The notes beneath the pieces are model-generated. The model did no database searches and was not told where the DNA came from. It saw only the letters and a list, made by a program, of their open reading frames with translations. The position numbers and the translations under genes are program-made. DNA of 64,000 bases from Syntrophales bacterium (lineage in GTDB: Bacteria; Desulfobacterota; Syntrophia; Syntrophales; UBA2210), in contig JALOBE010000005.1 in assembly GCA_023228425.1 (NCBI GenBank), positions 30,986 through 94,985 on the forward strand. Direction: 5' to 3'. Each line of letters begins with the position of its first letter. The stretch's first letter is position 1. This document shows positions 61,953-62,806 of this stretch, in pieces.

Positions 61953-62780
61953 CAATTTACTTTAATCTTATACACTTATAGTCACGCTTATTGCCCAAGT
62001 TGTTTTATCTTGAGTAAACTATGACAGAAAAGAATAGTCCCTTGCAAATGGCTTTACGTCTATTCCGTCAGTGCCAGGAACCTGCACAAACAAGCCTCTA
62101 CCTCTGCTGACCACATTAAATTTGAGCTGCCCCTTAGATTCGCTCATATCTTTACCATATTTCTCAAAAAAATTCTCCGGAAGAGGAACATCTATAACTT
62201 CTCCATTTTCGCGCTGGCATAAAAGCACGGCATGATCAAAGCCTCCAGCTGGCAAACCAAGAAACCAACGATATGGTTGTCTTTCTGTAGCAACAGCAAG
62301 GCCAACCAGTTTTCCTGACCTAGTACGAAATATTGTCTTTCCTTTAATCAACTGGAGGTGGATACCTTCTGCCTCGCGTTTTCTTAAGAACTCACTACGA
62401 ATTTGTTCTCCAAGCACTCTTGAGGCAACCATCTGCGCTGATCTTGACCCACTAACAGGGGTGGTCACAACACGCCGAGTTTTTGATTGTGTTATTTGTA
62501 GAGTGCCACTTTTCAGTCCTTCAAGTTCTGAAGTAATTTGTTTATGGCGAGAAATAAGATTTTCAATTTTTTCTAATTTTTCACTTTCTGCCAAGACAAT
62601 GTCGGTTTTCCCTTCACTAGCCGCTTTGGAGATAGCCGATAATATTTTGTTTTTCTCGTCTTGAAGCTCTGTTAAAGTACCCATGCGATGACCTCCTGAG
62701 TTAAGTTATATTTTCTATGACTCATAAGATAACAAAGTGCAAGTGCAGTGTCAAGTGTTTTTTTATTCATTAGGGCATAA
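61894..62780 (-). mobile_element. Complete integron gene cassette (887 bp, one ORF plus attC)
   Basis: Begins with TTATGC (62780-62775), just after the G of the upstream core site, and ends at the G of GTTAGGT. Its first six bases are the exact complement of its own attC R'' (GCATAA), as expected for a cassette. Confidence 0.7.
62019..62684 (-). CDS. Hypothetical protein (cassette ORF): N-terminal coiled coil, C-terminal globular domain
   Basis: 221-aa ORF with SD AGGAGG 8 nt upstream. No motif recognised. Confidence 0.6.
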   Translation of the reverse strand: MGTLTELQDEKNKILSAISKAASEGKTDIVLAESEKLEKIENLISRHKQITSELEGLKSGTLQITQSKTRRVVTTPVSGSRSAQMVASRVLGEQIRSEFLRKREAEGIHLQLIKGKTIFRTRSGKLVGLAVATERQPYRWFLGLPAGGFDHAVLLCQRENGEVIDVPLPENFFEKYGKDMSESKGQLKFNVVSRGRGLFVQVPGTDGIDVKPFARDYSFLS

Positions 62781-62806
62781 CGCTTGAGTTAAGCCGCGCC
62801 GCGAAG
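62775..62806 (-). other. 3' half of an attC site, truncated at its apex
   Basis: Minus strand: CTTCGCGGCGCGGCTTAACTCAAGCGTTATGC, ending in core GTTATGC. The partner 5' arm is absent and the sequence changes at 62807. Confidence 0.75.

Follow-up and report, generated by a model that had tools for sequence, protein, structure and literature searches.

An attC site is recognized by an R′ box of the form GTTRRRY, in which the integrase crossover falls between G and TT, by an inverse core, R″, of the form RYYYAAC, and an L″ box with an extrahelical base, which pair with R′ and L′, and by its folding into a hairpin as a single strand. Such sites are diverse across the cassettes of mobile integrons but differ little from one another in the chromosomal integrons of a single taxon. 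Clusters of attC sites that lack an integron integrase are known as CALINs, a concept from the IntegronFinder work. Some mobile elements invade attC sites, among them the IS1111-attC group and the group IIC-attC introns. The attC of the aadA1a cassette has been assigned to the Xanthomonadales type (Ghaly 2021, PMC8352920, Table 1). The same survey makes this assignment for the attCs of aadA2, aadA6, aadA7, aadA24, aadB, catB3, qacI and others, and reports that in complete chromosomes the type is nearly confined to the Xanthomonadales, with 0.6% of sites outside (Ghaly 2021, PMC8352920).

Here we analysed a 64-kb stretch of DNA (hereafter the window) from a metagenome-assembled genome of a Syntrophales bacterium (Desulfobacterota; NCBI name, three MAGs), the gene content of which suits an anaerobe: it includes a glycyl-radical enzyme with its activase, ADP-forming CoA ligases and sigma-54 regulators. 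A preliminary description of the window had noticed a truncated attC whose surviving 29 nt appeared identical to the attC of aadA1, had called this unexpected in an environmental anaerobe and had proposed that it could bear on the origin of that attC. We find that the 32-nt feature is very probably the dead 3′ half of a Xanthomonadales-type attC that belonged to a lost upstream cassette, in a small minus-strand array of the Syntrophales host that is devoid of an integrase.

The remnant attC and its family

The truncated attC lies at 62775..62806 on the minus strand and retains part of the loop, the 3′ stem, the L′ box GCTTAAC, a spacer and the R′ box GTTATGC. Its minus strand from 62806 to 62778 reads CTTCGCGGCGCGGCTTAACTCAAGCGTTA, a 29-mer that occurs only once in the 64-kb window, even when three mismatches are allowed, and that has a chance expectation of 0.00 (100 shuffles of the window). 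The aadA1 attC sequence that the preliminary description had given proved to be correct: it is found after aadA1 in the plasmids pHS30-1 of E. coli and pUL-CPE-01 of Citrobacter, as GTCTAACAATTCGTTCAAGCCGACGCCG followed by CTTCGCGGCGCGGCTTAACTCAAGCGTTAG (full 60-nt site, GTCTAACAATTCGTTCAAGCCGACGCCGCTTCGCGGCGCGGCTTAACTCAAGCGTTAG). In both plasmids, the aadA1 stop codon is followed by 2 nt and then by the start of the attC, and the 29-mer constitutes the 3′ half of the site. The identity to the remnant over 62806..62778 (minus strand) is indeed 29/29, and this match is present in approximately 1,900 plasmid records. The remnant begins at nucleotide 29 of the 60 in the aadA1 attC, a base that either closes the hairpin loop or is the first within it, in agreement with the earlier placement of the break at the hairpin apex. 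At the cassette boundary, its R′ core GTTATGC agrees with GTTRRRY at six of seven positions, with the crossover point between G (62781) and T (62780).

The truncation, too, was confirmed. The R″/L″ arm, with its extrahelical base, is absent from the remnant, and the end of an insertion sequence (IS) at 62807 stands in its place. A search for the missing 5′ half that tolerated up to six substitutions found no match in the window and recovered only the related intact attC at L003:3525-3584 (see below), and Rfam at its gathering threshold gave zero matches there. Folding of the remnant together with its flank yielded only −4.2 to −4.7 kcal/mol (z = +0.7 to +1.4), and shuffled sequence folded equally well; the corresponding values for the intact aadA1 attC are −18 to −19 kcal/mol. 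Because the remnant and its new flank no longer fold into the hairpin that defines an attC, the site is dead, a relic unable to form that structure.

A scan of species-representative genomes (one per species) with the 22-mer core CTTCGCGGCGCGGCTTAAYTCA returned at least 120 loci (L008-L127). Among the matches listed, 76 of 120 loci are labelled Xanthomonadales or Lysobacterales, with as many as 13 copies per 8 kb, and an IntI gene lies within the fetched 8 kb or so in 16 of the at least 120 loci. The other 44 of the 120 listed loci bear labels that include Calditrichia, NC10, Deferrimicrobiaceae, Desulforhabdus, Acidobacteriota, Bacteroidetes and many Burkholderiales; these are MAG taxon labels, and mis-binned contigs are possible among them. 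Together with the Syntrophales host, the 44 loci point to horizontal spread. The remnant contains the 22-mer exactly and in the correct register before R′, as family members do, and departs from the family's home taxon, a Xanthomonadales chromosomal integron, in its Syntrophales host.

The family is very homogeneous. Across 185 sites with full context, the consensus is GCCTAACAATTCATTCAAGCCGACGCCGCTTCGCGGCGCGGCTTAATTCAGGCGTTAGGC; these sites were chosen by the 22-mer that lies inside the 29-mer, which leaves only 7 of 29 positions free to vary. The window 29-mer agrees with the consensus at 27 of 29 positions, 22 of which were fixed by the selection, and both differences are common alleles. 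It is at most two mismatches away from 147 of the 185 sites (79%), all of them selected on its own 22-mer. Within the 29-mer, most of the variation among the 185 sites falls at three dimorphic positions, namely 47 (C in 38%), 51 (A in 12%) and 53 (C in 60%), and the window 29-mer represents one combination of alleles at these positions. The stem pair 13–47 covaries (A–T in 87 unique sequences and G–C in 32), as is expected of a structured site. The aadA1 attC itself matches most of the 185 sites at 51–54 of 57 positions and carries T2 and G13 in its 5′ arm, where the family consensus has C2 and A13. The perfect match to the remnant therefore follows from the aadA1 attC being an ordinary member of this family.

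Exact copies of the 29-mer are not restricted to aadA1. It is identical in 5 of the 185 sites, two of which are true aadA1 and three chromosomal (Luteimonas rhizosphaericola, a Lysobacterales MAG and Thermomonas haemolytica), the latter after unrelated cassettes. In metagenomes, among the matches listed, aadA1 accounts for 54 of 118 evaluable exact-29-mer sites, and approximately 61 follow many unrelated cassettes and have differing 5′ arms. These counts bear on the possibility that the lost upstream cassette was clinical aadA1 itself, captured from the class 1 integron pool, so that the remnant would literally be the aadA1 attC. The 29/29 match, the share of true aadA1 among exact sites in metagenomes (54/118 listed) and in species genomes (2/5), and the acquisition by this genome of one or more other cassettes that carry this attC type and travel widely (see below) are all in keeping with such a capture. 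However, dozens of other cassettes account for about half of the listed exact-29-mer sites. The remnant retains no feature specific to aadA1, since positions 2 and 13, which are diagnostic, were part of the 5′ arm that it lacks, and neither an aadA-like sequence nor the aadA1 5′ arm was detected in the window or the 8.7 kb beyond it. An aadA1 open reading frame (ORF) is absent upstream of the remnant, where an IS256 fragment is found instead; this region has probably been deleted, and the gene may formerly have been there. We regard capture of aadA1 as possible but rather doubtful, and what is left of the attC does not reveal which cassette was lost.

The match to aadA1 is thus an ordinary relic of cassette exchange, and it says nothing specific about aadA1. 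The expectation that attCs differ between cassettes holds for mobile integrons and breaks down within the chromosomal integrons of a taxon, where the sites are nearly uniform. With a near-uniform family, and with the 29-mer found on many cassettes besides that of aadA1, the identity no longer appears unexpected in an environmental anaerobe.

The cassettes that follow the remnant

Directly past the crossover point lies a complete mobile gene cassette (61894..62780, minus strand), which runs from TTATGCC to TTTTCG and whose boundary is kept in other arrays. It contains an ORF of 221 amino acids (62684..62019, minus strand) that has zero matches in Pfam; judged by eye, the N terminus of the encoded protein has a coiled-coil look. 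A putative sigma-70-like promoter upstream of the ORF (62726..62754, minus strand) consists of TTGACA, a 17-nt spacer and TATCTT, with an upstream TG. Its score of 10/12 is near consensus and it is conserved in all four contexts in which the cassette was found; it would give the 221-aa cassette a promoter of its own.

The cassette ends with an intact 65-nt attC (61888..61952, minus strand) that has R″ GCATAAC and R′ GTTAGGT and differs in type from the attCs of the Xanthomonadales family. This site folds at −19 to −21 kcal/mol (z of about −3.5 to −4) and was also recovered by a constrained-fold attC scan, a permissive method whose intragenic matches we took as false positives. The extra base on its L″ side places the orientation of the site on the minus strand. 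Its R″ is the exact reverse complement of GTTATGC, formed by the G of the remnant and the TTATGC of the cassette, as is required of a circularised cassette.

Variants of the cassette that are at least 90% identical were found in three other contexts (L136-L141, L142 and L143-L146), and the same 65-nt attC follows the cassette in L142 and L143-L146. The upstream neighbour is a different attC in each of L136-L141 and L142, with an exact G/TTATGCC boundary; including the window, this boundary is conserved behind three different attCs. In L143-L146, a group II intron precedes the cassette instead of an attC junction. An integron integrase thus joined the attC of the lost cassette to the 221-aa cassette at the canonical G/TTATGCC boundary, and everything up to the G at 62781 is the tail of the lost upstream cassette.

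Some of these contexts show further rearrangements. The 3′ end of the intron (RF00029, 67.6 bits) occupies L143:51-127 and L145:101-177 (JGI 3300022664 / 3300022181), stops 5 nt inside the start of the 221-aa cassette and is oriented like the ORF. The intron may be of the attC-associated IIC-attC kind, in an unusual orientation. In L136-L141, a ‘mini-attC’ palindrome composed of only R″ and R′ replaces the 65-nt attC directly downstream of the 221-aa gene, and in L267/L269 such a palindrome is found just upstream of the 104-aa gene described below. The two sequences, GGCATAATAATTGTTATGC and ACATAATAACTTGTTATGT, stand where a full attC would be expected and could be deletion derivatives or minimal sites.

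The next cassette (61557..61893, minus strand) starts with TTAGGTTTGGAGG and contains a lipoprotein-like ORF of 104 amino acids (61871..61557). Nucleotide homology of this gene to other contexts spans only the stretch from just past the crossover to the stop codon, and the attC scan found no attC downstream of the ORF. Approximately 2 kb downstream of the cassette stump is a glycyl-radical locus (56040-59573 of the window, minus strand) with an 801-aa ORF (PFL-like and Gly_radical) and a radical-SAM activase, beside which lie a gene of the carboxymuconolactone-decarboxylase family and a 1217-aa multi-PAS sensor.

The insertion sequence end and a proposed deletion scar

On its other side, the remnant abuts the 3′ fragment of an IS256-family element (62807..63656, minus strand) that carries the right terminal inverted repeat at 62807 and the C-terminal 262 codons or so of the transposase. 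The encoded protein matches the Pfam family Transposase_mut (PF00872; E = 1.2e-45) over profile positions 144-356 of 379, which identifies it as a Mutator-type DDE transposase with the N-terminal third missing. The fragment retains 850 bp of roughly 1,400; the approximately 540 bp that are gone comprise the left inverted repeat and about 147 codons, and homology to relatives of the element ends at window position 63656. Its closest full-length relatives are 83–85% identical, unnamed and annotated as Deltaproteobacteria, and the nearest named relative is ISPaac1, with 70% identity.

IS256-family elements have terminal inverted repeats and duplicate 8–9 bp of their targets. The 83–85% identical relatives, in five independent insertions, all end with ...CCACAACATTTGACAATATCTC (...GACAATATCTC) and then diverge, at the point that corresponds to window position 62807. 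This shared end establishes 62807 as a genuine right terminus of the IS, so the abutting IS256-like end reported earlier is real. Two of the relatives' insertions are flanked by 9-bp target duplications (GCAAATGCG and CTAGAAACC), and the left end of IS256-like elements of this kind is GGGGTATACCCCAAAGTTGTGG-like. In the window copy, the right repeat is present, its end being defined from the relatives, and the left repeat has been deleted. A 5′-truncated DDE_Tnp_1_4 transposase gene (63657..64000, plus strand; Pfam profile positions 104-196 of 435) follows, reads away from the IS256 fragment and runs off the end of the window. Since the two transposase genes are divergent and both truncated, we interpret the junction between them as a deletion scar between two divergent IS elements.

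The anatomy of the locus, in which the 5′ half of the attC and the upstream cassette are absent, suggests that insertion preceded deletion. An IS256-family element has landed in the attC so that its right end sits at the apex of the hairpin. In the proposed history, this insertion would have duplicated 9 bp (CTTCGCGGC) that correspond to the loop and 6 nt of the 3′ stem; the sequence preceding the now displaced left end of the IS would have been ...GCCGCTTCGCGGC. A single later deletion between the two divergent IS elements would have taken the left part of the IS, the 5′ arm of the attC, the upstream cassette or cassettes and possibly intI and attI. One such deletion would explain the truncation of both transposase genes as well as the loss of the 5′ arm and of the upstream region, and it would have left the 221-aa cassette no longer excisable from its upstream side. 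The allele that preceded the IS had zero matches in a metagenome scan with the first 21 nt of the cassette, and 0 of 122 listed exact-29-mer metagenome sites continue with TGCCCTAATG.

A break so precisely placed might be mechanistic, if the IS256-like element targeted attC hairpins in the manner of IS1111-attC elements and group IIC-attC introns. The insertion is right at the hairpin apex, and the reconstructed 9-bp target spans the loop. This is a single case, however, and the targets of the relatives (GCAAATGCG, CTAGAAACC and two more) show nothing attC-like. Targeting of attC by this element is therefore very unlikely, and we rejected it because its relatives insert in unrelated targets; the target sequences indicate that insertion into the attC was probably incidental.

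The junction could also be an artefact, either an assembly chimera or contamination by a laboratory Sm/Sp (omega) cassette or a class 1 integron, given that the contig is of metagenomic origin and that aadA1 is a common vector marker and contaminant. The 221-aa protein is encoded on contigs of five independent assemblies, four of which span the attC/IS junction and come from different samples and projects (JGI 3300044603, ENA ERZ27247376, SRR33737695 and SRR34068994). All four are identical over 80 nt of the IS side, the 29-mer and the next 60 nt. The fifth contig (L007) begins 1 nt inside the junction; taken by itself, such a break could be read as a sign of an artefact, yet a repeated IS is expected to break short-read assembly. 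As far as assemblies can tell, identity across four independent ones argues that the junction is not chimeric, and we rejected chimeric assembly on this basis. In addition, the attC part stops at the integrase crossover, where a genuine cassette continues, the other flank is a precise IS terminus, and the aadA1 coding sequence is absent. We therefore give an artefact of either kind almost no credence, and the mis-assembly that the preliminary description had named as a possible refutation is not borne out.

The wider locus and its comparison with known systems

A tblastn search with IntI1, a query validated by its 100% identity to class 1 integron loci, gave zero matches at E ≤ 10 in the 64-kb window and the 8.7 kb beyond it (73 kb), or in L003-L007, and PF00589 was absent among the called genes. 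Within these 73 kb, the array thus lacks the adjoining intI that a complete integron would have.

An intact attC of the same family as the remnant lies at L003:3525-3584, approximately 6.3 kb past the end of the window and in the opposite orientation (GCCTAACAACTCATTCAAGCCGATGCCGCTTCGCGGCGCGGCTTAATTCAGGTGTTCGAC). An intact copy elsewhere in the genome, which the preliminary description had proposed looking for, therefore exists at the level of the family, and it is only 52/60 identical to the aadA1 attC. The site is 95% identical to the attC of aac(6′)-IIa, and its attC matches in PLSDB also include those of aadA10 and aadA16. It belongs to a cassette (L003:3525-4397, approximately 5.1–6.0 kb beyond the window) that encodes a 248-aa SAM-methyltransferase. 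This methyltransferase cassette recurs with 93–96% nucleotide identity in MAGs labelled NC10, delta proteobacterium, Burkholderiales and Contendobacter; in PLSDB plasmids it was not found as a cassette, and only gene homologues of about 81% identity were present. It is a cassette that travels widely. The remnant and the L003 copy together indicate that cassettes of this attC type were received by the Syntrophales genome at least twice.

The interval between the two cassette stumps (L003:4400-9100, window-equivalent 63585-68285 and for the most part past the window end) contains IS debris, a RelB/YafQ toxin–antitoxin system, a 441-aa gene with a beta-lactamase fold and small ORFs. The two stumps are oriented outward from this interval, where intI and attI would be expected, which suggests that an IS-mediated inversion or deletion destroyed a former integron between them. 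Past the second array are TetR and RND efflux genes, followed by the last 9 kb of the source contig, where intI is not expected.

Two copies of this attC type in one Syntrophales contig might be taken to mean that the aadA1 attC or cassette originated in this lineage. The distribution of the family speaks strongly against this, both in our data and in the published survey, as its members cluster in the chromosomes of Xanthomonadales, where they occur in multiple copies and alongside IntI (also PMC8352920). The locus here has 1.5 copies, one truncated and one intact, with IntI absent over 73 kb; neighbouring cassettes carry unrelated attC types; and the intact copy sits on a cassette that is common to four other lineages at 93–96% identity. 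We consider a Syntrophales source highly improbable. Having 1.5 copies, no integrase nearby and other attC types next to them, the Syntrophales host is a recipient and not a source. The proposal that the remnant could illuminate the origin of the aadA1 attC must consequently be set aside, since the type has already been placed in the Xanthomonadales (PMC8352920) and the host received it; the half-site has little bearing on that origin in any case, as it cannot tell aadA1 from dozens of other cassettes.

The locus is instead a documented case of cassettes with Xanthomonadales-type attCs reaching obligate anaerobes, and of IS elements eroding arrays into integrase-less stumps in which the remaining cassettes are frozen in place. 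Unrelated attC types side by side imply integrases that tolerate different attC types. Were the lost cassette aadA1 after all, the chromosomal array of a strictly anaerobic syntroph would once have captured a class 1 resistance cassette, beside cassettes of quite different attC types, and would later have been destroyed by IS elements. Cassettes with Xanthomonadales-type attCs may circulate far outside the Xanthomonadales, given 44 of 120 listed loci here as opposed to 0.6% of sites in the 2021 survey (PMC8352920).

Compared with the Xanthomonadales-type (‘XL’) family of sedentary chromosomal integrons (PMC8352920), the remnant has the same register and boxes, and its exact 29-mer string occurs in Luteimonas, Thermomonas and Lysobacterales arrays. 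It differs in being a single truncated copy in a Syntrophales anaerobe, with neither a homogeneous array nor an integrase nearby. With the aadA1 attC, the 59-base element of class 1 integrons of the Tn21/In2 type, it shares the same 29 nt from part of the loop to the GTTA of R′, a half that is not specific to aadA1, and it lacks the 5′ arm and the aadA1 gene. Past the crossover, the remnant continues with TGCCC, the start of another cassette, whereas clinical arrays continue with GATGC or GGCCT.

Like a CALIN, the array consists of cassettes with attCs on one strand and is free of intI over the window and the 8.7 kb beyond. It is very small, however: the IS debris separates two attCs on this side, a truncated one and an intact one, from a third in the opposite orientation, and the array may be what remains of a complete integron that IS activity destroyed. 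The IS256-like element shares with the IS256 family the Mutator-type transposase domain, and its right inverted repeat is common to relatives that make 9-bp duplications, but the window copy is a dead 3′ fragment. As with the IS1111-attC elements and group IIC-attC introns, a mobile element is found inside an attC, and the group II intron at the same cassette junction in L143/L145 resembles these attC-invading elements; the relatives of the IS256-like element, in contrast, use unrelated targets. The feature is thus an instance of known things: an attC of a described family, an IS256 insertion and a cassette stump without an integrase.
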